32,000 bases of DNA from Chloroflexota bacterium (lineage in GTDB: Bacteria > Chloroflexota > Anaerolineae > UBA4142): positions 12,154 through 44,153 of the forward strand of contig JACRBM010000091.1 in the NCBI GenBank assembly GCA_016219275.1, written 5' to 3'. The notes beneath the pieces were generated by a model, which was not told the DNA's origin, did no database searches, and worked only from the letters and a program-made list of their open reading frames with translations. The translations under genes and the position numbers were made by a program. Position 1 is the first letter of the stretch; the number at the start of each line of letters is the position of its first letter. This document shows positions 9,575 to 26,360 of the stretch, in pieces.

Positions 9575-9678
9575 CCTCACTCCTCACCCCCCTCTCTTGT
9601 CGCGCACCCTAAGCGGAGCGTAGCGAAGTCGAAGGGCAGCGACAGGAGAGGGGAGAGCGGCAGGGGTGAGGGGTGAGG
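9575..9678. repeat. Pyrimidine-arm/purine-arm palindromic element, copy A
   Basis: The left arm is CCTCACTCCTCACCCCCCTCTCTTGTCGC, with a 35-nt loop. The right arm is GCGACAGGAGAGGGGAGAGCGGCAGGGGTGAGGGGTGAGG. Confidence 0.8.
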
Positions 9679-9767
9679 TAAGGAGGGCAAGCAACGAACA
9701 CAAATTCAGAAAGCCATCATTTAATCCGTACGGAAATTTGCACGTCATCCAACCAAAGGAGTCTGAG

Positions 9768-11183
9768 ATGAAAAAGTTTTTTGCACCGTTGTTGGTCGCC
9801 CTGACCTTGATCGGTTTGATCGCCTGTCAAGCCGCGCCAACTCCAGTCCCCCCGACCCAAGCGCCCGCGCCGACGACTGCCCCTGCCCCAACGCAAGCCG
9901 CCGTCGTTCCCACCAAAGCGCCCGAGCCGACGAAAGCGCCCGAGCCAACCAAAGCCCCCGCGCCAACCATCGCGAAGCAAGTCACGTTAAAAGTCGTCGA
10001 TGTGCGCACCGATGCCAAACAGGGCGCTGCCATGGACAAGATCAACAAGCTGTTCATGGAAAAGTATCCCAACATCAAAGTCCAGCGCGAGGCAATGCAA
10101 CTCGCGGACTTGCAGACTATTGCGCCGACCAATCTTTCTGCCGGCACGACCTGGGATGTGATTGAGTACGGACCGGGCGGCAATTACGTCGGCGTGCTCG
10201 CCGATGCCGGCTTGGTGCGTCCGCTCGACAATGAAGCGAAGCAACTCGGCTGGGACAAAAAGTTCTTCAAGTGGACGATGGAACGAACATTGTGGAACGG
10301 CAAAATGTTTGGCGTCCCGAACGCGCTCGAAACCTACGGCTGCTTCTACAACGTAGATCAGTTCAAGAAACTGAACATCGAAGTTCCAAAGACTTACGAT
10401 GATCTGCTCAAGCTCGCCAAGACTGCGAAAGACAACAACCTGACGCCAATCGCGTTTGGCGATTTGGAGAAATGGCCCGCTTATCATTCGTTCAGCATGA
10501 CGACGAACAATCTGCTCGGCAATTCAAAACTCGAACCACTGCTCTACACCAAAGCGAGTTGGGACGATCCGGAAATCGCCAAAGCGATCAAGACCTGGTT
10601 CGTCGATCTGCCCAAAGCCGGCGCATTCAACACCGATCCCGTGGCGACCAAGGTCGAGGATTCACGCACCTTGTTTTACACCGGCAAAGCATTGACGATC
10701 TGCACAGGCACATTCTTGATCGGTCGCGTCGAACTCAATGCCAAAGGATTTATACCGGGGTTCTTCTACTTCCCGGCAATAGATGGCAAAGCGATCAATC
10801 CACCGGCGGGCGTTGGCAAACTTTGGATCACACCGACCAAAGCGCCCAATCCACAAGAGGCGATTTTGTACTTGGATTTCCTGACGAGCGCTGCAGCATC
10901 GAAGGTTTATCTCGAAGAAGTCGGATTGATTCCGGCGTGGCCCGTCGATACATCCAACATCAACATCAGCGCGATGATGAAAACGGTCGTCGCCGAGTTG
11001 GGCAAACCGGGTTTGAGCATGGGACACAACATCGACGTCGAAATGCCGGCGAACTTTGTGCTGGCAATGGGCGATGGTTTCCAAGCTGTTCTGCTCGGAC
11101 AGAAAACACCTGAGCAAATGGCGAAGGACTTGCAAAAAGCCAAAGAGGATGCGATTGCCTCCGGCGCGATGAAGGTCAAGTAG
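9768..11183 (+). CDS. Sugar ABC transporter substrate-binding lipoprotein (family 1 extracellular solute-binding protein)
   Basis: The start was moved to ATG 9768 (AAGGAG upstream). The signal peptide has a lipobox (LIGLIAC) followed by a Pro/Thr/Ala linker with APEPTK repeats. The body is MalE-like. Confidence 0.9.
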   Translation: MKKFFAPLLVALTLIGLIACQAAPTPVPPTQAPAPTTAPAPTQAAVVPTKAPEPTKAPEPTKAPAPTIAKQVTLKVVDVRTDAKQGAAMDKINKLFMEKYPNIKVQREAMQLADLQTIAPTNLSAGTTWDVIEYGPGGNYVGVLADAGLVRPLDNEAKQLGWDKKFFKWTMERTLWNGKMFGVPNALETYGCFYNVDQFKKLNIEVPKTYDDLLKLAKTAKDNNLTPIAFGDLEKWPAYHSFSMTTNNLLGNSKLEPLLYTKASWDDPEIAKAIKTWFVDLPKAGAFNTDPVATKVEDSRTLFYTGKALTICTGTFLIGRVELNAKGFIPGFFYFPAIDGKAINPPAGVGKLWITPTKAPNPQEAILYLDFLTSAAASKVYLEEVGLIPAWPVDTSNINISAMMKTVVAELGKPGLSMGHNIDVEMPANFVLAMGDGFQAVLLGQKTPEQMAKDLQKAKEDAIASGAMKVK

Positions 11184-11194
11184 AGTATCGATAA

Positions 11195-11287
11195 CCTCAC
11201 CCCCTTCCCCCCACCCCCTTCCCCCTCTCCTGTCGCTGAACTGCGCGACAGGAGAGGGGGAAGGGGGCAAGGGGGATGGGGGTGAGG
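11195..11287. repeat. Pyrimidine-arm/purine-arm palindromic element, copy B
   Basis: CCTCACCCCCTTCCCCCCACCCCCTTCCCCCTCTCCTGTCGC, then an 8-nt loop, then GCGACAGGAGAGGGGGAAGGGGGCAAGGGGGATGGGGGTGAGG. It sits between the binding-protein and permease genes. Confidence 0.85.
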
Positions 11288-11299
11288 AGGAGAGTCCGA

Positions 11300-12250
11300 A
11301 TGCAAGTTCAACCCCAAGTGATTGTCGGGAAAAATGTCGCCATGAGTACTGCGCGCAATTCTTTTTTCACCCGCTGGCTCGATAAAAACAAAACCGGTTT
11401 TCTGTTCGTGTTGCCCGCGCTGATCTTTTATACGATCTTTTTCTTCGTTCCGATTCTCAACACGATCTACTATAGCTTTGTGCGCTGGAACGGCGCGGCG
11501 CCGACAATGCAATGGGTCGGTCTCGCGAATTACGCGCAGATGTTTCAGGACACCCAGTTGTGGTCTGCGTTTCAGCACAACGTCACCTGGATCATTGCCG
11601 GCACGCTTGCACCAATTGCGATTGCGCTGCCGCTCGCTTTACTCGTGACCAACATATCGCGCGGTCGGCTATTTTATCAGACGGCGTTCTTCATGCCGCA
11701 CATTCTCTCGAACGTCGTCGTCGCCGTGATCTGGGGTTGGATTTACAGTCCGCAGTTTGGTTTGCTCAACGCGGCGTTGCGGAACCTGGGTCTCGATTCG
11801 TGGACGCGCGGTTGGCTCGGCAATCCGCAAACGGCATTGTTTGCGATTGTCGCTGCCGCGGTGTGGCACTATATCGGTTTTTGTTTGGTGATTTTTGTCG
11901 CGGGCTTGCAAGATGTTGACGTGACCTTGATCGAAGCCGCGAAGATGGATGGCGCGAATGAACTCCAGCGATTCTTTCACGTCATCATTCCACAGATGCG
12001 CCACGTGCTCAACATGGTGATCGTCTACACGTTGATCGGCGGCTTTAATGTGTTCGACATTGTGCGCGTGATGACGGATGGCGGTCCCGCCGGCAACACC
12101 GAGTTGATTGGAACATACGCTTACAAGATGTCGTTCCGCACATTAAACATCGGTTATGGCGCGACGATTTCCGTGCTCATCATGGTTCTCTCGCTCGGCG
12201 CGTCCATCGTGTACAACTTGCTGCGCGATCGCGAGGAGGTCAGACGATGA
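11300..12250 (+). CDS. Sugar ABC transporter permease (MalF/BPD_transp_1 type)
   Basis: The start is probably ATG 11300 (GAGGAGGAG upstream). It is a multi-TM protein with a typical permease topology. The track start 11276 lies inside repeat B. Confidence 0.85.
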   Translation: MQVQPQVIVGKNVAMSTARNSFFTRWLDKNKTGFLFVLPALIFYTIFFFVPILNTIYYSFVRWNGAAPTMQWVGLANYAQMFQDTQLWSAFQHNVTWIIAGTLAPIAIALPLALLVTNISRGRLFYQTAFFMPHILSNVVVAVIWGWIYSPQFGLLNAALRNLGLDSWTRGWLGNPQTALFAIVAAAVWHYIGFCLVIFVAGLQDVDVTLIEAAKMDGANELQRFFHVIIPQMRHVLNMVIVYTLIGGFNVFDIVRVMTDGGPAGNTELIGTYAYKMSFRTLNIGYGATISVLIMVLSLGASIVYNLLRDREEVRR

Positions 12251-13113
12251 CAACAATTTCGATCACACGCGCAAATTCAAAAATAAAACCGCTCAAAGTT
12301 TTTATCGATGGACTCAAGTACAGCGTCCTCACGCTTGTGTTGGCGCTGATGATCGCGCCGCTCTTGTTGATGTGGATGTCGGCGATGAAGACGACCGTCG
12401 AAGTCGAAACCGATCCGCTCGCGCTGCCGCAGCGTTGGTCGTTCGATAATTTGGCGACGGCATGGACGGTCGGACGTTACGCGCTCTATGCACAGAATTC
12501 GATCCTCATCACGATTCCCGTCGTCGGCGGCGTGGTGGTGTTGTCATGTCTCGCCGGCTATGGTTTTGCGCGACTCAGGTTCGCCGGACAAAAGGCGCTC
12601 TACTATTATCTCTTGCTCGGTTTGATGGTGACCGTTCAATCGATCATGATCCCCCTGTTTTACAATGTCAAGAACCTGGGTCTGCTCGGTTCGCACTGGG
12701 CGATGATTCTTCCTTCGATTGGACTCGGCATTCCATTCGGAACATTTTTGATGTATTCATTTTTTCGCGGACTGCCGGAAGAACTGGCTGACGCCGCGCG
12801 TGTCGATGGCTGCAACGAATTCCAAGTTTTCTATCGCGTCATTTTGCCGCTCACCTCACCGGCGGTTTCGTCGTTGACGATTTTTCAATTCATGTGGTCG
12901 TGGAATGCATTCTTGTTGCCGCTCCTCTTTCTCAACTCCGAATCACTTCGTCCGATCACACTGGGGCTGATGTTGTTCCAAGGCGAATACACCACCGAAT
13001 TTCCACTCATCGCCGCCGGTGTCACACTGGCATCGCTGCCGATCATCATCGTGTATTTGATTTTGCAGCGACAATTTTTGCGCGGGCTAACTGCCGGCGC
13101 GTTGAAAGGTTGA
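12247..13113 (+). CDS. Sugar ABC transporter permease (MalG type)
   Basis: 288 aa, with an ATGA start/stop overlap with the upstream permease. It has the EAA-like loop (ELADAARVDGCNEFQVFYRVILP). Confidence 0.88.
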   Translation: MTTISITRANSKIKPLKVFIDGLKYSVLTLVLALMIAPLLLMWMSAMKTTVEVETDPLALPQRWSFDNLATAWTVGRYALYAQNSILITIPVVGGVVVLSCLAGYGFARLRFAGQKALYYYLLLGLMVTVQSIMIPLFYNVKNLGLLGSHWAMILPSIGLGIPFGTFLMYSFFRGLPEELADAARVDGCNEFQVFYRVILPLTSPAVSSLTIFQFMWSWNAFLLPLLFLNSESLRPITLGLMLFQGEYTTEFPLIAAGVTLASLPIIIVYLILQRQFLRGLTAGALKG

Positions 13114-13114
13114 A

Positions 13115-13203
13115 CCTCACCCCCACCCCCTTGCCCCCTCCCCCTCTCCTGAACCGCACTTCAGGTTCAGGAGAGGGGGAGGGGGTGGGGGGAGAGGGTG
13201 AGG
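13115..13203. repeat. Pyrimidine-arm/purine-arm palindromic element, copy C
   Basis: It starts 2 nt after the permease stop codon. The sequence is CCTCACCCCCACCCCCTTGCCCCCTCCCCCTCTCCTGAACC, then a loop, then GGTTCAGGAGAGGGGGAGGGGGTGGGGGGAGAGGGTGAGG. Confidence 0.85.
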
Positions 13204-13217
13204 ATTGGAGAACACAC

Positions 13218-14264
13218 ATGGGACAAGTCCTCACCATTCAAGAACCCTTTAAGGTTGGCTTTGACGAATATGAAGACCGACCGCTGTCCGAATCTGAAGT
13301 GCGGATTCAAACACTTTATTCCGGGATTAGCGCGGGCACGGAACTCACCGCGTATCGCGGGAGTAATCCTTACTTGCACAAATTCTGGAATGAAAAAGAT
13401 CGACTCTTTGTCACGAGCCAACCGCCGTCCAAACAATATCCCATGATCGCGTTTGGTTATGAGGAATGTGGGCGCGTGATTGAAATCGGAAATCAGGTGA
13501 CCCAGCTCAAACCCGGCGATTGCGTGTACGGAAACTGGGGACATCGCACGTATCACATCGCGACCGAAGAATGGGCAGCCGCGCGTCTCATGCCGGAAAA
13601 TCTCGATCCCATGCTCGGAATCTTTAACGTGATAACCGCAATTGCATACAACGGCATCTTGGACGCGGCGATTCGTCTGGGCGAAACGGTCGCGGTGTTC
13701 GGACTCGGCACGCCGGGGCAGATGGTCGCGCAGATGGCGAAACGATCCGGCGCGCGCGTGATTGGCGTTGACATGATCGACTTGCGGTTAGACTTGGCAC
13801 AGAAGATGGGCTGGATCGATGTTGCGCTCGACGCGCGGCGAGGACGGATCGCCGAACGCATCAAGGAACTCACCGACAATCGCGGCGCGGATGTTGTGAT
13901 CGAAGTGTCGGGCAGTTATGCCGCGCTGCATGAAGCGATCCGCGCGGCGGCGTATTCCGCCAAAGCAATCACACTCGGATTTTTTCAGGCACAAGGTTGC
14001 GACTTGTATCTCGGCGAAGAATTTCATCACAACCGCATCAACATCGTTTGTTCGCAAATCGGCGGCGTGTCGCCCGAACTCACGTATCGCTGGAATCGCC
14101 GGCGGCTGGAGCAAATGGGCATTCGTCTCCAAGCCGAGGGCGTACTCAATTTCAAACCATTGATCACACACGTCGTGCCATTCTGTAACGCGGCGGAAGC
14201 ATATCGCATTGCCGACCAGGAACCGGACAAGGCAATCCAAGTCGTTCTCGATTTTAATAACTGA
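13218..14264 (+). CDS. Medium-chain dehydrogenase/reductase (MDR) family oxidoreductase lacking the usual zinc ligands
   Basis: The start was moved to ATG 13218; the track start 12894 reads through repeat C and the upstream permease. It has GISAGTEL and FGYEECG where Zn-ADHs have C..D and GHE. The Rossmann motif is VFGLGTPG. Confidence 0.8.
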   Translation: MGQVLTIQEPFKVGFDEYEDRPLSESEVRIQTLYSGISAGTELTAYRGSNPYLHKFWNEKDRLFVTSQPPSKQYPMIAFGYEECGRVIEIGNQVTQLKPGDCVYGNWGHRTYHIATEEWAAARLMPENLDPMLGIFNVITAIAYNGILDAAIRLGETVAVFGLGTPGQMVAQMAKRSGARVIGVDMIDLRLDLAQKMGWIDVALDARRGRIAERIKELTDNRGADVVIEVSGSYAALHEAIRAAAYSAKAITLGFFQAQGCDLYLGEEFHHNRINIVCSQIGGVSPELTYRWNRRRLEQMGIRLQAEGVLNFKPLITHVVPFCNAAEAYRIADQEPDKAIQVVLDFNN

Positions 14265-14267
14265 ACC

Positions 14268-14319
14268 GCAAAGAACACGAAGAACAAAAAAAATAACTTT
14301 GTGTCCTTCGTGTCTTTGT
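14268..14319. repeat. Intercistronic hairpin (CACGAAG-type arms)
   Basis: GCAAAGAACACGAAGAACA, then an A-rich loop, then TGTGTCCTTCGTGTCTTTG. The inverted repeat is imperfect and lies between the MDR and Gfo/Idh/MocA genes. Confidence 0.5.
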
Positions 14320-14339
14320 AGTTCCATTCGGGATTCAAC

Positions 14340-15341
14340 ATGCAACAATTGAAAACGGCGATCCTGGGTTGCGGTGGTTTTGCTAATCGCCACGCTCAAA
14401 ACATCGCCTCACTGCCGGAACAATTCGAACTCGTCGCATTTTGCGATGTTGACCTTGCACGCGCTCACGCCTTCAACGAAAAGTACGGCGCGGGTCGCGG
14501 CGTGGTCTTTCAAGATCATCACGCTTTGTTTAAGCAAACGAACTTGGATTTGTGTTTGATTTGTCTGCCGCCATTCGGTCATGCCGACGAGGTTGAAATC
14601 GCCGCGCAATGCGGCGTGCATCTGCTCATCGAAAAACCGATCGCGCTCACGTCGCAACACGCCTGGCGCATGGTACAAGCGGCGGAACGCGCCGGCATCG
14701 TGACCCAGGTTGGGTTCATGTACCGGTTTGGCGCGGCGGTCGCGCGATTGAAAGAATTGATCGACAATGGTCAAGCCGGGAACCTCGGGCTGATGAGCGC
14801 GCATTATTTTTGCAATCATCTTCATGCGCCGTGGTGGCGCGACCGTGAAAAATCCGGCGGGCAGTTAGTCGAGCAAGCGATTCATCTGGTTGACTTGATG
14901 CGCTACCTGATGGGCGAAGCCGCGACGGTGTACAGTTTGCAGAACAACGTGTTCCATCGCGATCTTCCCAGCTACACCGTCGAAGATGTGTCGGGCACAG
15001 TGATCGGTTTTGAGAACGGAAGCGTCGGCGTGCTGTATGCGTCGAATGGCGCGGTTCCCAACAAGTGGCTCTACGATGTTCGCATCGTCGCCAAGAATCT
15101 CACCGCTGAATTCTCGAATGCGAATTGCGGGGTGATTACGCACACGAACGATTCGACATTGAAGACCGAAACGATTAGCTCCGATGCGAATCTTTATCTG
15201 CTCGAACTCCAAGACCTGTGGCGCGCGATTGTCAATCGCCAACCCACGCGCACGCCGATTCGTGAAGGCGCGCGCTCGCTCGATCTTGTGCTCGCCGCGA
15301 TGCGCTCGGCAAAAACGCAGAACATTGAAAGGTTACCATGA
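14340..15341 (+). CDS. Gfo/Idh/MocA-family NAD(P)-dependent oxidoreductase
   Basis: 333 aa. The N-terminal Rossmann motif is LKTAILGCGGFANRH, followed by EKP (LLIEKPIA). Confidence 0.88.
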   Translation: MQQLKTAILGCGGFANRHAQNIASLPEQFELVAFCDVDLARAHAFNEKYGAGRGVVFQDHHALFKQTNLDLCLICLPPFGHADEVEIAAQCGVHLLIEKPIALTSQHAWRMVQAAERAGIVTQVGFMYRFGAAVARLKELIDNGQAGNLGLMSAHYFCNHLHAPWWRDREKSGGQLVEQAIHLVDLMRYLMGEAATVYSLQNNVFHRDLPSYTVEDVSGTVIGFENGSVGVLYASNGAVPNKWLYDVRIVAKNLTAEFSNANCGVITHTNDSTLKTETISSDANLYLLELQDLWRAIVNRQPTRTPIREGARSLDLVLAAMRSAKTQNIERLP

Positions 15342-16504
15342 ACGCACGTCAACGCTTTTTGGCGGCGATGCACTATCAATCGCGCGACCGGTCGCCGCTG
15401 CTCGATTTCAACTTTTGGCCCGAGACCTTGCCGATCTGGCAAGAGCAAGGTTTGCCGGATTGGGTGGATCGACAAAACGAGGATGTTTTTTTTGGAATTG
15501 ATTTTTCTCTCGATAATGTTGGCGCGACCGGGGTGCGTGATGGTTTAGCGCCCACGTTCAGAAAAATAATTCTTGAAGATCGCGGCGACGTGCGTCTTTT
15601 GCAACAACGCGACGGCGTCCGCGTCGAACGGCGCAAACACATGTCGTCGTGGCACTCGGTTGGATACTTGCTCACCGATCGCGCGAGTTGGAACAAACAC
15701 TACAAGCCGCGCCTCGATCCGGCAAATCGCGTGCGCTATCCAGCCGATTGGAACACGCGTGTCAAGACATGGTGCGACCCGAATCGCAATTATCCCATCG
15801 TGTTGCCCGGCGGAAGTCTGTATGGTTGGCTGCGCAATTGGATGGGACTCGAAAATATTTCGATGGTGATTTTCGACAACCCAGTTTGGTTTGAAGAAAT
15901 GGTAACGACGGTCGCCGACTGCATCATCGGCGTGCTCGAACGCATCCTTGCAACTGGCGGCAGGTTCGACGCGTGCTCGATGTGGGAGGACATGTGTTAC
16001 AACACCGGTCCGCTCATCAATCCCAAACATTTCAAAAAATATTTTGTTCCGCACTATCGGCGCATTTCGGATTTGCTTCGCAAGCATGGCGTGGACATTA
16101 TCTATCTCGATTGCGATGGCAAGATCGACGATTTGATTCCGTTGTGGTTGGACGCCGGAATCAATTGCATGTATCCTGTCGAAGTCGGCACATGGAAGCA
16201 CGATCCAATCGAATTGTGCCAACGCTTTGGGAAAGATTTGTTGATGATGGGCGGATTCGACAAGCATTATCTTTTTGGATCTCCGGAAGAAATCGAAAAA
16301 GAAATTTATCGCCTGCTGCCGCTCGTCGAAGAAGGTGGGTACATCGGATTTCCCGATCATCGCGTTCCGCCGGACGTGCCGTACAAAAATTATGTGTTCT
16401 TCATCGAGACCCTGCGCCGGGTTTGGGGACAAGACACAAATCTGAAACCGATGGGCGTCAAATCGAAAAAGCCGAAAGAACGCCGAATGTTTTTCTATTG
16501 GTGA
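15338..16504 (+). CDS. Uroporphyrinogen decarboxylase (URO-D) family protein (MtaA/CmuA-like methyltransferase superfamily; function unknown here)
   Basis: 388 aa, with an ATGA overlap with the upstream gene. The N-terminus (RQRFLAAMHYQSRDRSP) and C-terminus (GGYIGFPDHRVPPDVPYKNYVFFIE) are typical of non-heme URO-D family members. Confidence 0.75.
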   Translation: MNARQRFLAAMHYQSRDRSPLLDFNFWPETLPIWQEQGLPDWVDRQNEDVFFGIDFSLDNVGATGVRDGLAPTFRKIILEDRGDVRLLQQRDGVRVERRKHMSSWHSVGYLLTDRASWNKHYKPRLDPANRVRYPADWNTRVKTWCDPNRNYPIVLPGGSLYGWLRNWMGLENISMVIFDNPVWFEEMVTTVADCIIGVLERILATGGRFDACSMWEDMCYNTGPLINPKHFKKYFVPHYRRISDLLRKHGVDIIYLDCDGKIDDLIPLWLDAGINCMYPVEVGTWKHDPIELCQRFGKDLLMMGGFDKHYLFGSPEEIEKEIYRLLPLVEEGGYIGFPDHRVPPDVPYKNYVFFIETLRRVWGQDTNLKPMGVKSKKPKERRMFFYW

Positions 16505-16597
16505 CCTCACCCCTCACCCCTGCCCCTCTCCCCTCTCCTGTGACTCGCGAAGCGTTCGTCACAGGAGAGGGGAGAGGGGTTGGGGAGTGGGGTGAGG
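16505..16597. repeat. Pyrimidine-arm/purine-arm palindromic element, copy D
   Basis: It starts the base after the URO-D stop codon. The sequence is CCTCACCCCTCACCCCTGCCCCTCTCCCCTCTCCTGTGAC, then a 13-nt loop, then GTCACAGGAGAGGGGAGAGGGGTTGGGGAGTGGGGTGAGG. Confidence 0.85.
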
Positions 16598-16618
16598 TGG
16601 AAACGGAACTCGTGGAAT

Positions 16619-17488
16619 ATGAATCACGCTGAATTGACTCGACTGTACGATTTCACGAATCGCGTTGTCGCGATCACCGGCGGCGCGGGTGCGCTGGGGA
16701 GCGAGATGGCGTGTGCCTTGATCGGTTGTGGCGCGCACGTTGCGATCCTCGACCGCGTTGCAGAATTGCCGCAACAATTTGTTGAGCGAATCGAAAATGA
16801 AAAGACATCCCGCTCAGGTCGTCTCGTTTTTCAGCAGACCGATGTGCTTGATCGCGCGTCACTCATCCACGCGCAAAAATCTATCGAGACGCAACTGGGT
16901 CAAGTTGATATATTGATCAATGCAGCGGGCGGCAATCATCCCAACGCGACAACTGGCGCGTATGGGAAACCAGGTGAACCGGCTGATCTCAGATTCTTCG
17001 ATCTTGCCGAAGATGGTTTGCGCCGTACGATGGATCTCAATTTTCTCGGCACGGTGTTTCCGTGCCAGGTCTTTGGTCGCGGCATGGCGGAGCGCGGCGA
17101 AGGCATCATTCTCAACATCTCTTCGATGAATGCGCTTCGACCCTTAACGCGCATCCCAGCGTACTCGGCGGGCAAAGCGGCAGTTAGCAATTTCACGCAA
17201 TGGCTCGCGGTCTACCTGGCGATGAATTATTCGCCGCGCATTCGCGTCAATGCGCTTGCGCCCGGTTTTTTCATCACCGCGCAAAGTCGTTTTCTTGCGC
17301 TCGACCCGGCAACCGGCGAATTGAGCGCGCGTGGTCGCACTGTCGTCGCGCACACGCCGATGGGTCGCTATGGCGCGCCGGACGAATTGATTGGAACGAT
17401 GTTTTGGTTGCTCTCGCCGGCATCCGCATTTGTAACTGGGACAATCGTTCCGGTGGATGGCGGCTTTTCCGCGTTTAGCGGTGTGTGA
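16619..17488 (+). CDS. Short-chain dehydrogenase/reductase, D-mannonate oxidoreductase (UxuB/YjmF)-like subgroup
   Basis: The start was moved to ATG 16619. It has TGGAGALG, NAAGGNHPNATT plus an insertion, and YSAGK catalytic motifs. Confidence 0.8.
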   Translation: MNHAELTRLYDFTNRVVAITGGAGALGSEMACALIGCGAHVAILDRVAELPQQFVERIENEKTSRSGRLVFQQTDVLDRASLIHAQKSIETQLGQVDILINAAGGNHPNATTGAYGKPGEPADLRFFDLAEDGLRRTMDLNFLGTVFPCQVFGRGMAERGEGIILNISSMNALRPLTRIPAYSAGKAAVSNFTQWLAVYLAMNYSPRIRVNALAPGFFITAQSRFLALDPATGELSARGRTVVAHTPMGRYGAPDELIGTMFWLLSPASAFVTGTIVPVDGGFSAFSGV

Positions 17489-17499
17489 AAAAAAAGATG

Positions 17500-17568
17500 A
17501 CAACGGACAAGAACGGATTTAGCGGACTTGTAATTGGTTTGTCCGTTCAATCCCATGTCGTCCGTTGT
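17500..17568. repeat. Nested intergenic hairpin (ACGGACAA family)
   Basis: ACAACGGACAAGAACGGA pairs imperfectly with TCCGTTCAATCCCATGTCGTCCGTTGT. An inner hairpin is CGGAC...GTCCG. Confidence 0.5.
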
Positions 17569-17591
17569 AATCCCCAAGGAGAAGCGTACGC

Positions 17592-20186: not shown

Positions 20187-20840
20187 GTGTCAAGGCTTGA
20201 ATCAATCCGGACAGCAGTTATCGAAGGCGATGCGAATCAAACGCGAACCGATGTAACTCGAGGTTTAGCCGAGGGAATCAGCGCTGCCGACATTTTGAAC
20301 AAGGCGCTTGTTTCCGCAATGTCCGAAGTCGGAAAACGTTTTGAAGAAGGTGAGTATTTTGTGCCTGAAATGCTGATCTCGGCGCGTGCTATGAAAGAAG
20401 GCTTGGCAATTCTCAAGCCGAAACTTGCCGCGGCAGCCGTTGAACCGGCTGGCAAAATTGCGATTGGCACCGTTAAAGGTGATCTGCACGACATTGGCAA
20501 AAATCTCGTCGCGATGTTGATGGAAGGGGCTGGGTTCAAAGTCTTCGATTTGGGCGTAGATGTCTCACCAGAAAAATTTAGCCAAGCCGCCACAAATGAT
20601 ATTCAGGTCATTGCGATGTCTGCCTTGCTCACCACGACGATGCCGATGATGCAACAAACCATTCAGCATTTGAATAAAATGGGTGTGCGTAATCGTGTGC
20701 ATGTTATTGTCGGTGGCGCGTCGGTGACCGAAGCGTTTGCACAATCCATCGGCGCTGATGCCTTTGCGCCTGACGCAAGCACCGCCGCACGCAAAGCGCT
20801 CGCACTTGTCAAAAAGCAATCTTTGTTTTGTGTTCGATGA
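20187..20840 (+). CDS. Corrinoid (cobalamin)-binding protein, MtaC/MtbC type
   Basis: 217 aa with a GTG start after AGGAG. An N-terminal helical cap is followed by the B12-binding Rossmann domain, with DxHxxG (GDLHDIGK), SALLTT and VGGA motifs. Confidence 0.88.
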   Translation: MSRLESIRTAVIEGDANQTRTDVTRGLAEGISAADILNKALVSAMSEVGKRFEEGEYFVPEMLISARAMKEGLAILKPKLAAAAVEPAGKIAIGTVKGDLHDIGKNLVAMLMEGAGFKVFDLGVDVSPEKFSQAATNDIQVIAMSALLTTTMPMMQQTIQHLNKMGVRNRVHVIVGGASVTEAFAQSIGADAFAPDASTAARKALALVKKQSLFCVR

Positions 20841-21140
20841 GATTTGGCGTCACCGAATCCCATCGGATCAATCAATTTAGTGGTCAAATGATTCTTCCCC
20901 ACCACTCTCACTGTCGTTACAATCCGCTAACCAACGAATGGATTTTGATTTCTCCTCATCGTGATTAAATCTGTCCGAGCCACGGATAGATTGAATCGCA
21001 AGCACCGACAGAGCTATTCGTATGTGCCAGTTTGTTATCTCTACCGGGGCAATCGGCGCGCGGCTGGCAAATTAAACCCACTCAATAACCACATGTTTGT
21101 TTTCGGGAATGACATTGCTCCTTGGTTGCCCAAGCCAATG
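20837..21140 (+). pseudogene. galT: Galactose-1-phosphate uridylyltransferase gene remnant (frameshifted, 3'-truncated)
   Basis: Fragment 1 reads HCRYNPLTNEWILISPHRD and ends at a stop codon. Fragment 2, in another frame, reads VCYLYRGNRRAAGKLNPLNNHMFVFGNDIAPWL. This corresponds to the CxLCPGN...NP.Y...F.NDF region, with the Cys/Pro lost. Homology ends near 21140. Confidence 0.7.
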
Positions 21141-21149
21141 CCATGTAAG

Positions 21150-21739
21150 GATGCTCGAATGAGATGACTACCACATTCGCCGCAAAACAATTTACTGGTC
21201 ACAGGAAAAAGCGTTCGGGTTCTGGTAGTCAAAGAATGTGGTTTTCGATGCATCCGCTTGCGAATTTCCTGACAGCGCTCAAACACTTCGGTCGTGACCA
21301 AGGACGGGTGGCTACCGTCTTGCAACAAGGTCGGGTTGTATCGTTTCGACTTGGTACCGTGTTCGGTTGTGCCAAAGTACGGAACGCGTCCAGTGTAGAA
21401 GACGCGCATCAGCAGTTCGCGAACACTGTCGCGCGTGAACTGTTGTGGTCCACCTCGTGGTTGCAAGCGTTTGGTCCGAAAGTGTCGCGTGGTTCCGTCG
21501 GGTAGCGTCACGACATAGCCGTTCAACTTTTCGGCGATAAGCCCGTCGCAATATTTTCCTGCTTGATGCCAATCGAAGGAAAGGTGGACTGCAATGCTTT
21601 CAATAGGATGAAGGATCAGAGATTTTCCATCACTACGATTGGTTTCGGAGTAATATGGACAGTAGTTCAATCCATTGGTCATCATTGCATGGCGGATCGC
21701 TCTGAGTGCACCTCCATCCTCATCGTCAGGATCGAGCAA
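21150..21739 (-). mobile_element. Large serine recombinase remnant (recombinase domain plus start of zinc ribbon; catalytic resolvase domain missing)
   Basis: The translation reads CPYYSE...HPIESIAVHLSFDWHQAGKY..IAEKLN...FTRDSVRELLMRVFYTGRVPYFG...GSHPSLVTTEVFERCQE...KLFCGECGSHL. There is no N-terminal Ser catalytic domain. The last ~35 codons of the track ORF (21041-21145) are read-through into antisense galT. Confidence 0.7.
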
Positions 21740-21743
21740 AGGT

Positions 21744-22574
21744 CACAGTATCCAACTCACCCTGGATGGCAAGACCTTGCGCGGCACCATCCCCGCAGGA
21801 CACACGCGCGGCGTTCATCTCTTGGCGGCGTTCTTGCCGGGCGAAGGCTGGGTGATGGCGCAAGTCGAGGTGGGCGCGAAAGAAAACGAAATTCCCGCCG
21901 CCGCGCGCGTCTTAAAATGCCTGGATTTACAGGGTAAAATCATCACCGGCGATGCTCTGCTTGCCCAACGCGAGTTATCGCGCCAGATTGGTGAGGCGCA
22001 GGGCGACTACGTTTGGACGGTGAAAGCCAATCAACCGCAACTGTGTCAGGATCTGGAAACGCTGTTTGCCGGCGAATCCTGCACCCCGGGCTTTAGTGCG
22101 GCGACGAAAGATTTTCGCTCGGCGGAAACGGTGGACAAGGCGCACGGACGGATTGAGCTGCGCACCCTCACGGCGAGTCAGGAATTAAAGGGCTATCTCG
22201 ACTGGCCCTATGCCGAACAAGTCTTTCAACTCGAACGTCGTTTTGGGCGTGTGGCGGACGGGCGCGTGATGCATGAAGTCGTCTATGGGATCACCAGCCT
22301 GACCGCCCACGAAGCGAATGCCCCACGCTTACTCGAGCTTGTGCGGGGGCATTGGTTGATTGAGAACCGGTTGCATTATCGCCGCGATCAAACGATGCGC
22401 GAAGATTGGTATCACGTGCGCTTGGGAACGGCACCGCAGGCAATGGCCGTGATTAACAATCTGGTCTTGGGCTTGCTAGACAAGCAATCTTTTCGGAGTG
22501 TGCCAGAAGCGCGGCGTTACTATGCGGCTCACCTTGATCAAGCTTTGAGTCTGCTCGTGCAATCGCCGTGCTGA
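21744..22574 (+). mobile_element. ISAs1-family (H-repeat-associated) DDE transposase remnant, 5'-truncated
   Basis: The translation reads LTLDGKTLRGT...HLLAAF...AKENEIPAAARVLKCLDLQGKIITGDALLAQRE...YVWTVKANQP...AHGRIELR...RGHWLIENRLHYRRDQTMREDW. About 100 N-terminal residues of the family are absent. Confidence 0.78.
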
Positions 22575-22609
22575 CTTTGCACGCGCCCTGGATGAGGCGA
22601 CTCGGCGCA

Positions 22610-22638
22610 TTGACTTTTCCGGCGATTCGGCATATACT
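22610..22638 (+). promoter_or_regulatory. Sigma70-type promoter TTGACT-17 nt-TATACT
   Basis: -35 at 22610-22615 and -10 at 22633-22638, with exact 17-nt spacing. Confidence 0.5.
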
Positions 22639-22644
22639 CACGAT

Positions 22645-22754
22645 TGTAAGGAGTTTCTGACGATGAGTGGTTTTCCCGCCCGAGGGCAACGGGAATCAGC
22701 TTGCAATTTTCAAAGGCACTAGACGCGCCCGTGCGCGTCTGGTGTTTTTTGTTT
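22645..22754 (+). other. Short promoter-to-terminator transcription unit (~110 nt): candidate small RNA, or leader with a 19-codon sORF (22663-22722, MSGFPARGQRESACNFQRH)
   Basis: It is bounded by the 22610 promoter and the 22721 terminator. AAGGAG lies 9 nt before ATG 22663. An internal hairpin is TTCCCG-N11-CGGGAA. I recognise no known riboswitch motif. Confidence 0.3.
22721..22754 (+). terminator. Rho-independent terminator
   Basis: Stem AGACGCGC, loop CCGT, stem GCGCGTCT, followed by GGTGTTTTTTGTTT. Confidence 0.7.
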
Positions 22755-22779
22755 GGCAAATCCCAGTCAGGAGGTTGTG

Positions 22780-23055
22780 ATGGATTCGAGTATGTACGGT
22801 AAGATCGAAAAGGCAAAGCGGTACGCCGCCGAAGCGGATCGCCGCGTCGTCTTTACCAAGTTCGAAGTGAAACTCGAAGGGGACAACAACACGTACACCG
22901 TGGCTTTTGATTTGGGTCGTTGGTCGTGCGGATGCCGCTACTTTGCGACGCACGGCTTGTGCAGTCACACGATGGCGATGGAACGCGTATTAGGCAGCAA
23001 GATTCCACCTTCGCCCGAAGCGGTTGCAACGGTGGTGGGTGTAACGAACAACTGA
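22780..23055 (+). CDS. Small SWIM-type zinc-finger protein (91 aa)
   Basis: The start was moved to ATG 22780 (AGGAGG upstream). The CxCx8CxH signature is WSCGCRYFATHGLCSH. Confidence 0.7.
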   Translation: MDSSMYGKIEKAKRYAAEADRRVVFTKFEVKLEGDNNTYTVAFDLGRWSCGCRYFATHGLCSHTMAMERVLGSKIPPSPEAVATVVGVTNN

Positions 23056-23074
23056 ATACGCGAGTAGAACGCGA

Positions 23075-23108
23075 GACCCGAAGGGTGATTGCCCTTCGGG
23101 TCTTTTTA
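23075..23108. terminator. Bidirectional Rho-independent terminator between convergent genes
   Basis: Stem GACCCGAAGGG, then a loop, then CCCTTCGGGTC, followed by TTTTTATT. It lies between the SWIM gene and rdgB. Confidence 0.75.
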
Positions 23109-23699
23109 TTCGCCAAAATGTTTGAGCAGTTCGCGCGCGTGTTCCGCCGCGCGGGCGCGATGGCTGATGCGATTTTTTTCTGCGCTCGACAATTCCGCCA
23201 TCGTCAACCCGCGTTCGGAAAACAGGAACACGGGATCGTACCCAAACCCGTTCGCGCCGCGCGGCGCGAACGCAATTTCGCCTTCGCACGCGCCGGCGCA
23301 TTCGCGCGTGTCGCCGCGCGGCGACGCGAGGACGATGACACACCGGAAACGCGCGGCGCGTTGTGCGCGCGGCACGTCGCGCAGTTTGTCGAGTAAGAAG
23401 ACGACGCGCGCCGCGTCGCTCGCATCGTCGCCGGCGTACCGTTTCGAGCGGATGCCTGGCTCGCCGCCGAGCGCGTCCACTTCTAACCCGGAATCATCCG
23501 CGAGGGTGAGCAAACCGCTTGCGCGCGCGTACGCGGTCGCCTTGAGGTGCGCGTTCTCCGCAAAGGTCGCGCCGGTCTCTTCCACATCGTCTTGAATGCC
23601 AACATCGTCAAGCGTGACGAGTTCGTAGGGCAATCCCGCGAAGATTTCCTGATACTCGCGCAGTTTGCCGCGATTGTGCGTCGCAATCAACAATTTCAT
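23106..23699 (-). CDS. rdgB: Non-canonical purine NTP pyrophosphatase (XTP/dITP diphosphatase, RdgB/HAM1 family)
   Basis: 197 aa. It has MKLLIATHNRGKLREYQEIF and FGYDPVF motifs. Confidence 0.9.
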   Translation of the reverse strand: MKLLIATHNRGKLREYQEIFAGLPYELVTLDDVGIQDDVEETGATFAENAHLKATAYARASGLLTLADDSGLEVDALGGEPGIRSKRYAGDDASDAARVVFLLDKLRDVPRAQRAARFRCVIVLASPRGDTRECAGACEGEIAFAPRGANGFGYDPVFLFSERGLTMAELSSAEKNRISHRARAAEHARELLKHFGE

Positions 23700-24038
23700 C
23701 TATACACTGATCACTTTCGCCGCGCCATTCATCGCGGCGATGATGTCGCCCATGCCGCCGACAATGCCGACGCGCACCTGCTCACGCAAGCCAAGAAAAT
23801 CGAGACACGTTTGGCAAATGACGAGTCGTGTCGCTTTGCCGGCGAGATTTTGTAACGGTTCCAAAACGGGCGAACCCGCGCACGCCAGTTTGACGCCTTC
23901 GCCGTAAAACGCGATGACCCCGGGCGGCGTGTCTTGATTGAGCAACGTCAAAAACGTCGCCGCGAGTTTTTGTTGCAACGCAGTGGGCGCATCGCCCATC
24001 CCAAAACGCGTAAAGAGAATCACGGTGTCCGAATTCAT
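23700..24038 (-). CDS. DsrE/DsrF-like family small protein
   Basis: 112 aa. It has the pattern VILFTRFGMG...LVICQTCL...GGMGDII...AKVISV typical of DsrE-like sulfur/selenium-relay-fold proteins. Its stop codon abuts the rdgB start. Confidence 0.55.
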   Translation of the reverse strand: MNSDTVILFTRFGMGDAPTALQQKLAATFLTLLNQDTPPGVIAFYGEGVKLACAGSPVLEPLQNLAGKATRLVICQTCLDFLGLREQVRVGIVGGMGDIIAAMNGAAKVISV

Positions 24039-24059
24039 TTTGGTTTCCTCTTGTCACTC

Positions 24060-24088
24060 TTGACCTTGTAAACCAATCGCGCTACAAT
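24060..24088 (+). promoter_or_regulatory. Sigma70-type promoter TTGACC-17 nt-TACAAT
   Basis: -35 at 24060-24065 and -10 at 24083-24088. It is about 45 nt upstream of the DUF4446 start. Confidence 0.5.
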
Positions 24089-24132
24089 GCGACTGCTTTG
24101 ATTTCAAAATCTCCAACCCATACGGGGGGCGT

Positions 24133-24603
24133 GTGGAAATTCTGGTTGTAATTCTGTTGCTGGCGTTGATCGCGCTTGGCGGCTGGGTCGTCTTTCTCGA
24201 ACTGCGGCATCAAAAACTCGCGGCAGCGTTTCGCACGGTGATGACCGGTCGCGCGGGCGCGGACTTGGAATCTATCTTGATGGATTACCTGGCGCGGATG
24301 GATCGCGTCGAGCAAGTGGCGCAGGCAGTAGAGCAACATCTTGTGCACATCGAAAGCAAAATGCCGTTCCTGATCCAGCACGTCGGCATCGTGCGCTTCA
24401 ATCCATTCTCGGACAAGGGCGGCGACCAGAGTTTCGTCGTCGCGGTGCTCGACGACCACACCGACGGTTTTGTATTCAGCGGCTTGCACTCGCGCACCGA
24501 TGTGCGCGTCTACGCCAAGCCGGTCGTCAGCGGACAATCCACCTACACATTGACCGCCGAAGAAAAAGAAGCCATCGCGCGCGCGATGAAACCGCGGACG
24601 TGA
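24133..24603 (+). CDS. DUF4446-family membrane-anchored protein
   Basis: 156 aa with a GTG start. It has an N-terminal TM helix, then VGIVRFNPFSDKGGDQSFVVAVLDDHTDGFVFSGLHSR...VYAKPV, as in DUF4446. Confidence 0.75.
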   Translation: MEILVVILLLALIALGGWVVFLELRHQKLAAAFRTVMTGRAGADLESILMDYLARMDRVEQVAQAVEQHLVHIESKMPFLIQHVGIVRFNPFSDKGGDQSFVVAVLDDHTDGFVFSGLHSRTDVRVYAKPVVSGQSTYTLTAEEKEAIARAMKPRT

Positions 24604-24637
24604 TTTTGGATTTTCGATTTCTGATTTTCGATTTGCC

Positions 24638-24677
24638 GCCGTTGAAGTTTTTTCCTCGCTTCAACGGCGTTTCTTTT
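24638..24677 (+). terminator. Rho-independent terminator
   Basis: Stem GCCGTTGAAG, an 11-nt loop, stem CTTCAACGGC, followed by GTTTCTTTT. Confidence 0.7.
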
Positions 24678-24731
24678 AGTAGCGAATTCACAATACGCAA
24701 TACGCAATTTGCCATTCGCCATCCGCCATTC

Positions 24732-26261
24732 CTAATTCGCTGCCGCCAGTTCGACCTCACGTTGCCGCGCCGGACGCGCGTGCCACACGCTCAACGCGCC
24801 GGTAAAACCGAAACTCGCCGCGTACAACAACAAGTACGGCAACGTCCAGTACGCGTGCTGATGCCACGCAATCGCCGCGCCGACCAGCGCGTACACGGCA
24901 AGCGCCCACTCGCCAATCGTTTCCCAGCCCAATGTCAACGCGTACCGTTTTTCCGTCCACGAATCGCCGTCCGCTTCGACGCGGAATTTCGGCGTGCGGC
25001 GAAACGTGTTGCCGCGCCGCGTGAGCGCCTCGATCACGGCGATAGAATTGTTGAGCGCCAGCCCGGTACCCAGTAGCAGCAGCACGCTGAAATAGCGCAT
25101 CCGCGAGATCCAATCGGGATACAACGCGCGTTGCGACATGCCGTAGATCGTCACCGGACCCAGCATTGCGAAACTGAACAGCATCATCACGTCGGCGAAC
25201 TGAACGCGCCACGCGAGAAGCGGCACAAGCATAATCAGCATGACGATCAGCAAGGGATTCATTAGATAGCCGGACAGATGAAGCAAACCGACGATGCGTT
25301 TGAACCAGGGCACGCCCGGTGCGGTGAGAATGCGCGGTCCCAGTTTGACGAGACATTGGGTTGAACCCTTTGCCCAGCGAAATTGTTGACGCTTGTACGC
25401 GTGAATCTGCGGCGGCAACTCGGCAGGCGAGATCACGTCCGGCAAAAACAAGAATTGCCAGCCGCGCAGTTGCGCGCGGTACGACAAGTCCAGGTCTTCG
25501 CTCAACGTATCGCCGTGCCAGCCGCCCGCATCGTCAATACACGCGCGCCGCCACACGCCGGCGGTGCCGTTAAAGTTAAAGAACAAGCCATTGCGCGAGC
25601 GCGCGACCTGCTCGACGACGAAATGTCCATCGAGCGCGATCGCTTGCGCGCGGGTCAACGCCGAGTAATCGTGATTGAGATGTCCCCACCGCGTTTGCGT
25701 CATCCCCAGCTCGGGGCGCGCGAGAAAATGCGGAATCGTCTTTTTGAGAAAATCGGTCGGCGGCACAAAGTCCGCGTCAAAGATCGCGATAAATTCGCCG
25801 GTCGCGTACTTTAATCCTTCGGACAGCGCGCCGGCTTTGAACCCGCTGCGGTCCGCGCGGCGAATCAGCGCAATGTCCACGCCGCGCCGGCGATGGTACT
25901 CGACACGCGCTTGCGCGATCGCGGTCGTCTCATCGTCCGAATCGTCGAGCACCTGGATTTGCAACCGGTCGCGCCGCCAATCGAGCAGTGCCGCCGCGTC
26001 AATCAATCGTTCGACGACGTACAGCTCGTTAAAGATCGGCAATTGCACCGTCACGCGCGGCATCACGAACAATGTCGGCGTCGTGGTCTTGTTGTTGCGT
26101 TTACGCCAAAACAAACCAACCGATAGAATGAGATTCAAACCATAGATGCCAAGAAAAATCGCGGCAATCAAATAAACCCAATAAAAAATTCCTGCCACAC
26201 TACCTCCGATGAAACCAGGATAACAGTGCGGGAGTATACCACTGAATAAAAAATTCAACAA
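24732..26261 (-). CDS. Processive family-2 glycosyltransferase (cellulose-synthase-like, multi-TM)
   Basis: 509 aa. Motifs are VLDDSDDE, FDADFVP, SEDLDLS and QQFRWAKG (QxxRW), with flanking TM helices. The TTG start is uncertain. Confidence 0.85.
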   Translation of the reverse strand: MLNFLFSGILPHCYPGFIGGSVAGIFYWVYLIAAIFLGIYGLNLILSVGLFWRKRNNKTTTPTLFVMPRVTVQLPIFNELYVVERLIDAAALLDWRRDRLQIQVLDDSDDETTAIAQARVEYHRRRGVDIALIRRADRSGFKAGALSEGLKYATGEFIAIFDADFVPPTDFLKKTIPHFLARPELGMTQTRWGHLNHDYSALTRAQAIALDGHFVVEQVARSRNGLFFNFNGTAGVWRRACIDDAGGWHGDTLSEDLDLSYRAQLRGWQFLFLPDVISPAELPPQIHAYKRQQFRWAKGSTQCLVKLGPRILTAPGVPWFKRIVGLLHLSGYLMNPLLIVMLIMLVPLLAWRVQFADVMMLFSFAMLGPVTIYGMSQRALYPDWISRMRYFSVLLLLGTGLALNNSIAVIEALTRRGNTFRRTPKFRVEADGDSWTEKRYALTLGWETIGEWALAVYALVGAAIAWHQHAYWTLPYLLLYAASFGFTGALSVWHARPARQREVELAAAN

Positions 26262-26312
26262 GGTTTGTGCCGTGGCTGGTATCCACGCGCGTCATTGCGA
26301 GCGCGGGCAACA

Positions 26313-26360
26313 CTCACCCCTCCCTTCCCTCCCCTTACCAAGGGGGGCTGGGTGGGGTGA
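26313..26360. repeat. Pyrimidine-arm/purine-arm palindromic element, short copy E
   Basis: CTCACCCCTCCCTTCCCTCCCCTT, then ACCA, then AAGGGGGGCTGGGTGGGGTGA. It lies in the divergent GT2-GT2 intergenic region. Confidence 0.7.

Follow-up and report, generated by a model that had tools for sequence, protein, structure and literature searches.

G/C-rich palindromes resembling BoxC elements in the intergenic gaps of a Chloroflexota sugar operon

The sugar operon and its five palindromes

This study concerns five G/C-rich palindromes, here called copies A to E, in a 32,000-nucleotide stretch of DNA (the window) of a Chloroflexota bacterium (Anaerolineae, UBA4142; assembly GCA_016219275.1, contig JACRBM010000091.1, forward-strand positions 12,154 to 44,153). 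The source names of permeases identical and 80% identical to that of the window, together with sample names, indicate an uncultured groundwater member of Chloroflexota. Pfam assignments make the neighbourhood a single plus-strand cluster for sugar uptake and catabolism. It comprises the genes of a GH4 glycosidase (7040-8473), a LacI repressor (8499-9536), a solute-binding protein (9768-11183, with the start of a Logan gene call), permease 1 (11300-12250), permease 2 (12247-13113), a Zn-dehydrogenase (13218-14264), a GFO/IDH/MocA oxidoreductase, and a URO-D-like protein (15338-16504). These are followed, in order, by the genes of a short-chain dehydrogenase, a transaldolase, an aldehyde dehydrogenase, and a B12-binding protein. 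Copy A (9575-9678) precedes the binding-protein gene. Copy B (11195-11287) lies between the binding-protein gene and permease 1, copy C (13115-13203) between permease 2 and the Zn-dehydrogenase gene, and copy D (16505-16597) between the URO-D-like gene and the short-chain dehydrogenase gene. The short copy E (26313-26360) is found between divergent glycosyltransferase genes. All five copies are intergenic, and no strand is assigned to any of them. A first-pass annotation, made from the sequence alone, had described them as a REP-like family filling the gaps of a sugar operon. Direct reading of the window confirms the coordinates and the termini of the five copies, and the gaps indeed belong to one sugar ABC-transporter operon with LacI, a binding protein, two permeases, and dehydrogenases.

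The word CTCACCCC occurs 10 times on the two strands of the window, against 0.37 occurrences expected from shuffles, and all of the occurrences are confined to the five elements. Scans for G/C runs and core words revealed no sixth copy in the 32-kb window. In the ranking of a repeat finder, the copies are the strongest inverted repeats of the window. The inverted-repeat arms are 41 nt long and 90% complementary in copy D, 37 nt and 86% in copy B, 29 nt and 90% in copy C, and 19-28 nt and 75-95% in copy A. The copies were folded as RNA with a few flanking bases, and z-scores were calculated against shuffles. The minimum free energies are -68.7 kcal/mol (z -7.3) for copy A, -93.2 (z -10.9) for copy B, -85.4 (z -8.9) for copy C, -88.0 (z -11.1) for copy D, and -34.3 (z -3.8) for copy E. 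No shuffle matched the native energy of copies A to D. RNA folding, which had been proposed as a check, thus predicts stable hairpins for the four full copies (z -7 to -11). The inner stems vary among the copies yet stay complementary (TGTCGC/GCGACA, TGAACC/GGTTCA, TGTGAC/GTCACA). The palindromes are a real multi-copy family. In copy A, the left arm has lost one pyrimidine unit, leaving an 11-nt bulge. Copy E is short and degenerate and lacks the inner stem; its membership of the family is less certain than that of copies A to D.

The earlier description of the three junctions was accurate. The stop codon upstream of copy B ends at 11183 and the next ATG is at 11300; for copy C the corresponding positions are 13113 and 13218. 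Copy D follows a stop codon ending at 16504 and is followed by a GTG at 16613 or an ATG at 16619. The open reading frame (ORF) starts at 9666, 11276, 12894, and 16580 had been explained as over-extensions through the elements, and I agree, since independent gene calls on the Logan contig L001 place the starts further downstream (9768 for the binding protein, and 11300 and 13218). The proposal that the elements supply the Shine-Dalgarno sequence of the next gene stands, marginally, for copy B alone (GGAGG at 11286-11290, with a 2-nt overlap with the stem), the only copy with a clear overlap.

Copy A is located directly 3′ of a LacI-type operator, TGTGTAAACGATGACACA (9553-9572), and 90 nt upstream of the start at 9768. 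Thus, the leader of the transcript for the binding protein would contain it. The same operator type occurs at the corresponding place in related operons, described below. Two further LacI-type operator palindromes with the same TGTAAACGAT core are found upstream of the GH4 gene (6884-6910 and 6965-6991). The three operators and the shared operator type suggest one LacI regulon under the LacI gene at 8499-9536. A strong Shine-Dalgarno-like AGGAGG (9681-9686) lies directly after copy A, with no start codon within 5-12 nt; the called start at 9768 is 80 nt on. As for the surroundings of copy E, GTCATTGCGAGCGCGGGCAAC lies just upstream (26288-26311), and TGTTATAAT (26362-26370), directly after the copy, resembles an extended -10 box, although a consensus promoter scan did not flag it. 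A typical glycosyltransferase N-terminus (MKISLIITVKNE) begins with the GTG at 26380. The corresponding transcript may be leaderless or very short-leadered, with copy E in the place of the -35 box.

Block structure and likeness to known repeats

A full copy has the order H′-Y-(copy-specific stem-loop)-R-H. Its two arms, left and right, are mutual reverse complements, and each of them is additionally a mirror repeat assembled from 7-nt units, in which a run of four or five C or G residues is joined to TCA/TCT or AGA/TGA. Since the whole is a palindrome, both strands read the pyrimidine arm first and the purine arm second. On the plus strand of copy B, the H′ block CCTCACCCCCTTCCCCC (11195-11211) is complementary to the block that serves as third strand on the minus strand. 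The Y block CCCCCTTCCCCCTCTCC (11214-11230) is the pyrimidine strand of the inner duplex. The copy-specific stem-loop (11231-11250) consists of TGTCGC, an 8-nt loop, and GCGACA, and is followed by the R block GGAGAGGGGGAAGGGGG (11251-11267), the duplex's purine strand. After the loop CAA, the H block GGGGGATGGGGGTGAGG (11271-11287) mirrors R at 17 of 17 positions. The H′, Y, R, and H blocks lie at 13115-13130, 13134-13149, 13170-13185, and 13188-13203 in copy C, and at 16505-16520, 16523-16538, 16564-16579, and 16582-16597 in copy D. In copy A, the mirror pair is formed by R (9645-9657) and H (9666-9678), covering 13 positions. The loop between R and H is 2-3 nt long in copies B, C, and D (CAA, TG, TT, CA), and Y is connected to R by a stem-loop of 16-43 nt.

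The mirror rule tested here is that of a purine-motif triplex, in which H lies antiparallel on R with G on G and with A or T on A. The fit is 17/17 on both strands of copy B and 16/16 on both strands of copy D; the minus strand of copy C fits at 16/16 and its plus strand at 15/16. In copy E, the rule was fitted weakly and unconvincingly. Mononucleotide shuffles of the arms reached the observed value in 0 of 2000 trials for copies A, B, and D. In a stricter null model, all G runs and spacers were kept and only their order was permuted; for six of the seven arms, no more than 4 of 5000 such permutations equalled the observed value (3 of 5000 for the H block of copy B). Six of the seven arms outperform both null models. 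The C residues of the purine arms are restricted to the mirror centre (CAA, CA, CGGCA).

How might such arms come about? In the output of Tandem Repeats Finder, they are arrays of 7-nt units (CCCCCTT x 3.9, CCTCACC x 4.6, AGGGGGA x 3.9) and also two copies of 13-14-nt units. The left arm of copy B is a 100% identical tandem duplication (14 nt x 2) of CACCCCCTTCCCCC. Duplication of CACCCCCTTCCCCC inside the short form CCTCACCCCC-TT-CCCCCTCTCC yields the long mirror arm of copy B, so that part of the mirror symmetry needs no selection. The arms would then grow and shrink by slippage of 7- and 14-nt units. The four-way symmetry was also considered as evidence of selection for a triplex, and this argument is weakened by the arrays of mirror-symmetric units. 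Copy B is readily explained by them. Copy D is not easily explained, since each of its four blocks resembles a doubled core unit and coordinated changes would be needed.

The family had been called REP-like, but the closer match is the BoxC/PIT/TM_ECO motif of E. coli, with common core words and the same mirror logic of the Y, R, and H blocks. The E. coli pattern is CCCTCNCCC N3-6 GGGNGAGGG N3 GGGNGAGGG, where a C-rich Y pairs with a purine partner R, and a third block H is able to lie on R as a purine-motif triplex (Holder 2015, PMC4666352). As single-stranded DNA, the motif forms a stable triplex in vitro, and it has been linked to local genomic variability; no triplex was detected in double-stranded DNA or by in vivo dimethyl sulfate (DMS) footprinting. 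As far as the literature is covered in that paper, purine-motif triplexes do not form in RNA. The same motif (HPG1/HPG2, HPGQ) has also been described as a switch between G-quadruplex (G4), hairpin, and duplex (Kaplan 2016, PMC5100583). No follow-up that settles the function of PIT/TM_ECO was found in the literature.

Both kinds of elements are G/C-rich, intergenic, and multi-copy, and for both a triplex and a G4/hairpin reading have been proposed. They share the order of a C-rich Y, a purine R, and an H mirroring R, a short loop between R and H (2-3 nt in copies B, C, and D, and N3 in the strict E. coli pattern), and frequent inverted pairs. They also share the GGAGAG/GTGAGG core, in which the two A residues of R are mirrored, in this order, by A and T, the duplex TCTC/GAGA (CTCTC/GAGAG), and a third block GTGAG flanked by G runs. 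By direct reading, the core words of copies A to D agree with Table 1 of PMC4666352 and with the E. coli hrpB-mrcB spacer. The strict TM_ECO pattern, however, has no match on either strand of the window, as the G-run lengths and the first loop differ. The G runs are shifted by one (GG-AGA-GGGG in the window, in CCCCTCTCC, GGAGAGGGG, and GGGGTGAGG, versus GGG-AGA-GGG in E. coli), the blocks are 16-17 nt long instead of 9 nt, and Y is connected to R by the 16-43-nt copy-specific stem-loop instead of a loop of 3-6 nt. The architecture also differs. In a window copy, H′ and H are the outermost blocks of a single central hairpin, while the E. coli element consists of two small hairpins whose innermost blocks are H and H′. 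The hrpB-mrcB spacer reads (Y R H) spacer (H′ Y R), and copies found in Arcicella and Thermoanaerobaculia (see below) read (H′ Y R) spacer (Y R H). The host, belonging to Chloroflexota, is different as well. The likeness is a resemblance that may reflect homology or convergence. Judging from the sequences, the elements would be a long-armed, single-hairpin variant of the BoxC/PIT/TM_ECO kind in groundwater Chloroflexota, an assignment that I hold to be somewhat more probable than its opposite as part of the explanation favoured below.

Other families are more distant. REP sequences are imperfect palindromes, 20-40 nt in length, that carry a conserved tetranucleotide at the 5′ end and are recognised by a RAYT (a Y1 transposase). 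Like the REP, BIME, and REPIN families, the window elements are extragenic palindromes, which are frequent inside operons and at the 3′ ends of genes. In contrast to REP and REPIN sequences, copies A to E show no sequence similarity to them and no GTAG-type 5′ tetranucleotide, their arms are homopyrimidine and homopurine with mirror symmetry, and they are far longer and more stable than a single REP. No RAYT-type transposase was linked to them, in a weak test with an IS200 query, RAYTs being distant relatives. Hairpin repeats resembling miniature inverted-repeat transposable elements (MITEs), such as Correia, ERIC/IRU, and RUP, are likewise non-autonomous palindromes of about 50-150 bp that are co-transcribed with their neighbours and able to change mRNA stability. 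Unlike those, the window copies vary in their internal arm units instead of being near-identical. The MITE reading was rejected for the window, because the copies have no target-site duplication and the insertion sequence (IS) copies of the window have no matching terminal inverted repeats. Rfam gave no match at the gathering threshold; below it, only generic long-hairpin models (eukaryotic miRNA precursors) appeared.

Occurrence in other genomes and in related operons

Are these elements common outside this operon? I scanned a collection with one genome per species for a 25-base pattern consisting of CCTCACCCC, a gap, CTCTCYTG, a gap, and CAGGAGAG. At least 120 genome stretches match, where less than one match in the collection is expected by chance according to my own estimate, which is not a shuffle test. 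Among the matches listed, many phyla have the core words CCTCACCCC, CCCCTCTCC, GGAGAGGGG, and GGGGTGAGG in common. The majority of these matches are metagenome-assembled genomes (MAGs) of Chloroflexota (Anaerolineae, Dehalococcoidia, Caldilineales, and Thermoflexales). The others belong to Bacteroidota (including the cultured Arcicella rigui and A. rosea), Balneolales, Thermoanaerobaculia, Armatimonadia, Zixibacteria, Cloacimonadota, Thermodesulfovibrionales, Fraserbacteria, Peribacteria, Nomurabacteria, and one cyanobacterium, and several of the groups outside Chloroflexota have more than one locus. Ten viral contigs also carry the pattern. This taxonomic range is a sample rather than a census, and mis-binning of MAGs could inflate it; the Arcicella isolates and the AT-rich flanks argue that the spread is real.

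The short form is usual. In the loci defined by the pattern, 133 of the 156 pyrimidine arms are limited to two runs of at least three C residues, while the long-armed form with four runs is a minority concentrated in a related groundwater genome (JACQYF01) and one other Anaerolineae MAG. Only 43% of the half-site centres fall in ORFs of at least 150 amino acids, compared with 86% of all positions under a crude ORF model, and the half-sites inside ORFs are mostly at ORF edges. Under a similarly crude gene model, the contexts are co-directional in 49 cases, convergent in 23, and divergent in 10. In the source sample itself, the Logan contig L001 ends exactly at 16597 and another, L205, starts at 16568, so that two contigs meet inside copy D. 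Two independent contigs breaking inside copy D are a signature of a repeat shared with other loci. On the available evidence, I lean towards regarding the five sequences as copies of a dispersed, non-coding, G/C-rich palindromic repeat.

The MAG ADurb.Bin325 has a homogeneous subfamily of at least seven copies (L034, L039, L052, L061, L068, L075, and L076). Their asymmetric loops (CAT on one side and AGCCGA on the other) give them a defined orientation. Several of them are nested in a larger palindromic unit with the outer repeats TCTATCCGAAA...TTCGGATAGA. The nesting, a trait shared with MITE-like repeats, suggests mosaic, MITE-like units in that genome.

It was then assessed whether the elements are an ancestral part of the operon. 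Orthologous operons were obtained by protein search and contig look-ups, and five syntenic ones were read, with permease identities of 80% (L202), 67-68% (L216 and L218), and 60-62% (L220 and L221). In a metagenome scan for close permease 2 orthologues, the best match was only 48% identical and useless for an empty-site comparison. A word scan found no element in L202, L216, or L218, and the junctions of L220 and L221 have sequences unrelated to the elements. Thus, the elements are not ancestral parts of the operon; they are secondary occupants of its intergenic gaps. The idea that they are a designed part of the operon is not tenable, since orthologous operons do without them.

The junction of the binding-protein gene and permease 1 is different. 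Its spacer has a minimum free energy of -94 kcal/mol in the window (copy B), -34 in L202, -42 in L216, -47 in L218, -45 in L220, and -35 in L221. A strong hairpin is therefore present in all six operons, each time of unrelated sequence. As the hairpin is kept whatever its sequence, copy B occupies a hairpin-keeping position. The comparison with the malE-malF REP of E. coli, which the first-pass annotation had drawn, is thus apt for copy B, which has the same position after a binding-protein gene, and a barrier to 3′ exonucleases would be expected here as there. The hairpins at 4979-5059 of L216 and 2981-3098 of L220 are rich in G and C runs, with the purine arm first (GGTGAGGGGCGCG...CGCGCCCCTCACC and GGGATGGGGGAGTG...CACTTCCCCATCCC), which is opposite in polarity to the window family.

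The gap between permease 2 and the dehydrogenase gene, by comparison, is 104 nt in the window (copy C) and 94 nt in L202, where it is filled with a different palindromic repeat, GTCACCCTGAGCG...GCTCAGCATGAC (6844-6935). It is 62 nt in L216 and 81 nt in L218, both with weak structure (-16 and -15 kcal/mol), and merely 7 nt in L220 and 13 nt in L221. Thus, only the window and L202 have a large palindrome at this junction among the six operons. Just after the element, the Shine-Dalgarno region is conserved (ATTGGAGAA in the window and ATGGAGTAA in L202). Copy D adjoins a difference in gene content; the short-chain dehydrogenase gene is absent from L202.

Possible roles of the palindromes, and other repeats of the window

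The explanation that I favour, though not by far, is that the palindromes are dispersed repeats that have settled in intergenic gaps, with copy B in the position of a REP-like mRNA stabiliser and copies C and D as passengers. On the polycistronic transcript, each copy is predicted to fold into one very stable hairpin, whichever strand is transcribed, and the next ribosome-binding site would remain outside the stem. The most likely effect would be REP-like; the hairpin may act as a barrier to 3′-to-5′ exonucleases or as a processing boundary and thereby stabilise the upstream mRNA segment. It would matter most at copy B, downstream of the binding-protein gene. The 5′ leader would be capped by copy A, while copies C and D are most likely tolerated passengers. 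The potentials for triplex and G4 belong to the arms as single-stranded DNA and more plausibly concern the origin and the instability of the family than the regulation of the operon.

A number of points weigh against this explanation. The mRNA stabilisation is inferred from the position and the predicted stability of the hairpins. Under the crude gene model, the single asymmetric forms are oriented without bias with respect to transcription (16 versus 12), and no orientation bias was found for the E. coli motif either (Holder 2015, PMC4666352). According to the work of Maher and colleagues, as far as it is cited in the same paper, the E. coli motif acts neither as a promoter nor as a terminator and is not consistently related to operons. 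Four copies lie within 7 kb of one operon, whereas the loci of the related genome, which are stretches selected for a match, have about one per 8 kb; this clustering is unexplained. As for the means of spread, the flanks of the five copies lack target-site duplications, the element bears no likeness to the ends of the window's IS copies, and the repeats around the IS4-like transposase are unlike the element ends. A weak test on 4777 open frames, taken from the window and related loci, gave no IS200-type transposase. In addition, the variation among the copies keeps inverted and mirror symmetry jointly, and with the four coordinated unit duplications needed in copy D, slippage alone is not obviously enough.

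The palindromes might instead be purely selfish or neutral repeats that fill harmless gaps, with the hairpin as a by-product of the palindromic structure. I regard this as unlikely, though it deserves the most attention among the alternatives. It fits the absence of the elements from the five orthologous operons, the gap of only 7-13 nt in place of copy C in two relatives, the decayed look of copy A, the other unrelated palindromic repeats in gaps of the window (4030-4130, 8436-8462, and 17496-17572), and the published studies in which the E. coli relatives lack regulatory activity. However, a hairpin of -85 to -93 kcal/mol in an mRNA is unlikely to be wholly neutral for decay, copy B lies where every related operon keeps a hairpin, and the downstream Shine-Dalgarno sequence is left free in copies B and C. 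The mirror symmetry raises another reading, in which the element acts at the DNA level. A Y-R-H intrastrand triplex, H-DNA, or a cruciform would form during replication or transcription, stall polymerases, and promote rearrangement. The mirror rule holds on both strands far beyond the permutation nulls, the C residues of the purine arms are found only at the mirror centre, the single-stranded E. coli motif forms a triplex in vitro and is associated with local genomic variability (Holder 2015, PMC4666352), and copy D borders on the missing dehydrogenase gene of L202. Nevertheless, this reading is improbable, because the E. coli motif failed to show a triplex in double-stranded DNA or in vivo, the full-length hairpin would compete strongly with the triplex, the mirror symmetry is partly an automatic result of tandem duplication of mirror-symmetric units, and the gene-content difference at copy D is a single case.

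The purine arms had also been said to fit the canonical G4 pattern, with hairpin and G4 as competing folds. The pattern (four runs of three or more G with 1-7-nt loops) is present in the arms of copies B, C, and D, where the proposed G4Hunter check gives scores of 1.6-2.2; copies A and E have no four such runs within the loop limit. The idea of a hairpin and a G4 as alternatives is already published for the E. coli relatives, with K+-dependent circular dichroism signatures of G4 (Kaplan 2016, PMC5100583), and the isolated arm of copy B is predicted to form a G4 at -54 kcal/mol. However, when G4 is allowed in the folding, the hairpin stays the minimum for every full element at -64 to -92 kcal/mol, while the isolated arms reach only -54, -20, and -35 kcal/mol. 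The C-rich arm is transcribed first and would be available for pairing once the G arm emerges. Besides, 133 of the 156 arms in the related loci have only two runs of at least three, and neither the mirror order of the units nor the conserved ends with two G residues is explained by G4 folding. A switch between a G4 or i-motif and the hairpin, dependent on ions or proteins and regulating transcription or translation of the next cistron, is thus very unlikely. I give still less credit to intrinsic terminators or attenuators that would divide the cluster into separate transcription units. A single form in Balneolales is followed by a run of eight T residues (L040), and similar repeats of Enterobacter were presumed to be terminators by the authors of a genome paper (PMC2869309). 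No T tract, however, follows any window copy, a terminator scan flags none, the next start codon is 12-21 nt on with no promoter-like site, and PIT elements lack terminator activity in E. coli. The terminator and promoter readings were rejected, as the elements have neither a terminator-like T tail nor a promoter-like consensus site.

The conservation of the core across phyla and the simultaneous inverted and mirror symmetry are left unexplained by the favoured account of settled repeats. It is conceivable, albeit doubtful, that the family is acted on by dedicated sequence- and structure-specific machinery and that the triplex-capable geometry is selected, not incidental. Such machinery could be a mobilising enzyme or a host factor reading a DNA hairpin with a fold-back tail, by analogy with the RAYT/IS200 enzymes that read REPs. 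This idea comes from the same 9-nt core words in Chloroflexota, Bacteroidota, Acidobacteriota, candidate-phyla bacteria, cyanobacteria, and phage contigs, together with the joint symmetry of divergent copies. If true, it would provide a mechanism for BoxC, which has been an orphan among repeats since the 1990s.

About 30 years after they became known in E. coli, BoxC/PIT motifs still lack a function. The window, from an unrelated phylum, presents a variant that is much longer and has both symmetries, placed at defined junctions within a single operon. Since the same junction carries the element, an unrelated hairpin, or nothing across the orthologous operons, the locus is a natural test bed. 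The exact core words in cultured Arcicella and in viral contigs sharpen the questions of homology versus convergence and of what spreads the elements. In practice, the elements break short-read assemblies and shift automatic ORF starts upstream, and masking them is advisable in the annotation of Chloroflexota MAGs.

The window also has unrelated repeats and remnants of mobile elements. The palindromes in the gaps at 4030-4130, 8436-8462, and 17496-17572 form a second intergenic family made of 10-nt tandem units (ACGCGGACAA/ATCCGCGTTC), and the source sample has two Logan contigs that terminate within it (at window positions 4109 and 8434). A relative, GGACGCGGATGAACGCGGATGAACGCGGA, lies in the gap between the GFO and URO-D genes of L202 (9060-9100). 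As to GTCATTGCGAGCGCGGGCAAC upstream of copy E and the GTCACCCTGAGCG...GCTCAGCATGAC palindrome of L202, GTCA(T/C)(T/C)(G/C)(C/T)GAGCG-type words are presumably another widespread repeat of MAGs. The mobile-element remnants comprise an IS1595-like fragment (6440-6844) and an IS4-like DDE transposase gene (21675-22574), in which a Logan contig ends (21906). A serine-recombinase fragment (21041-21739, minus strand) overlaps the transposase gene. At the end of the window, an 84-bp tandem repeat (6.3 copies with 90% identity, 31471-32000) continues past the boundary, each unit containing the palindrome TTCGCCGGGCAACCCGGCGA. As 84 bp corresponds to 28 codons, it probably encodes a repeat protein. 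Finally, a 25-nt inverted repeat, AATTATT...TTGAATAATT (1541-1565 and 1614-1638), lies in the divergent region between a ROK-family regulator gene on the minus strand (292-1536) and an isomerase-like gene (1687-3054), and it could be an operator of the ROK regulator.

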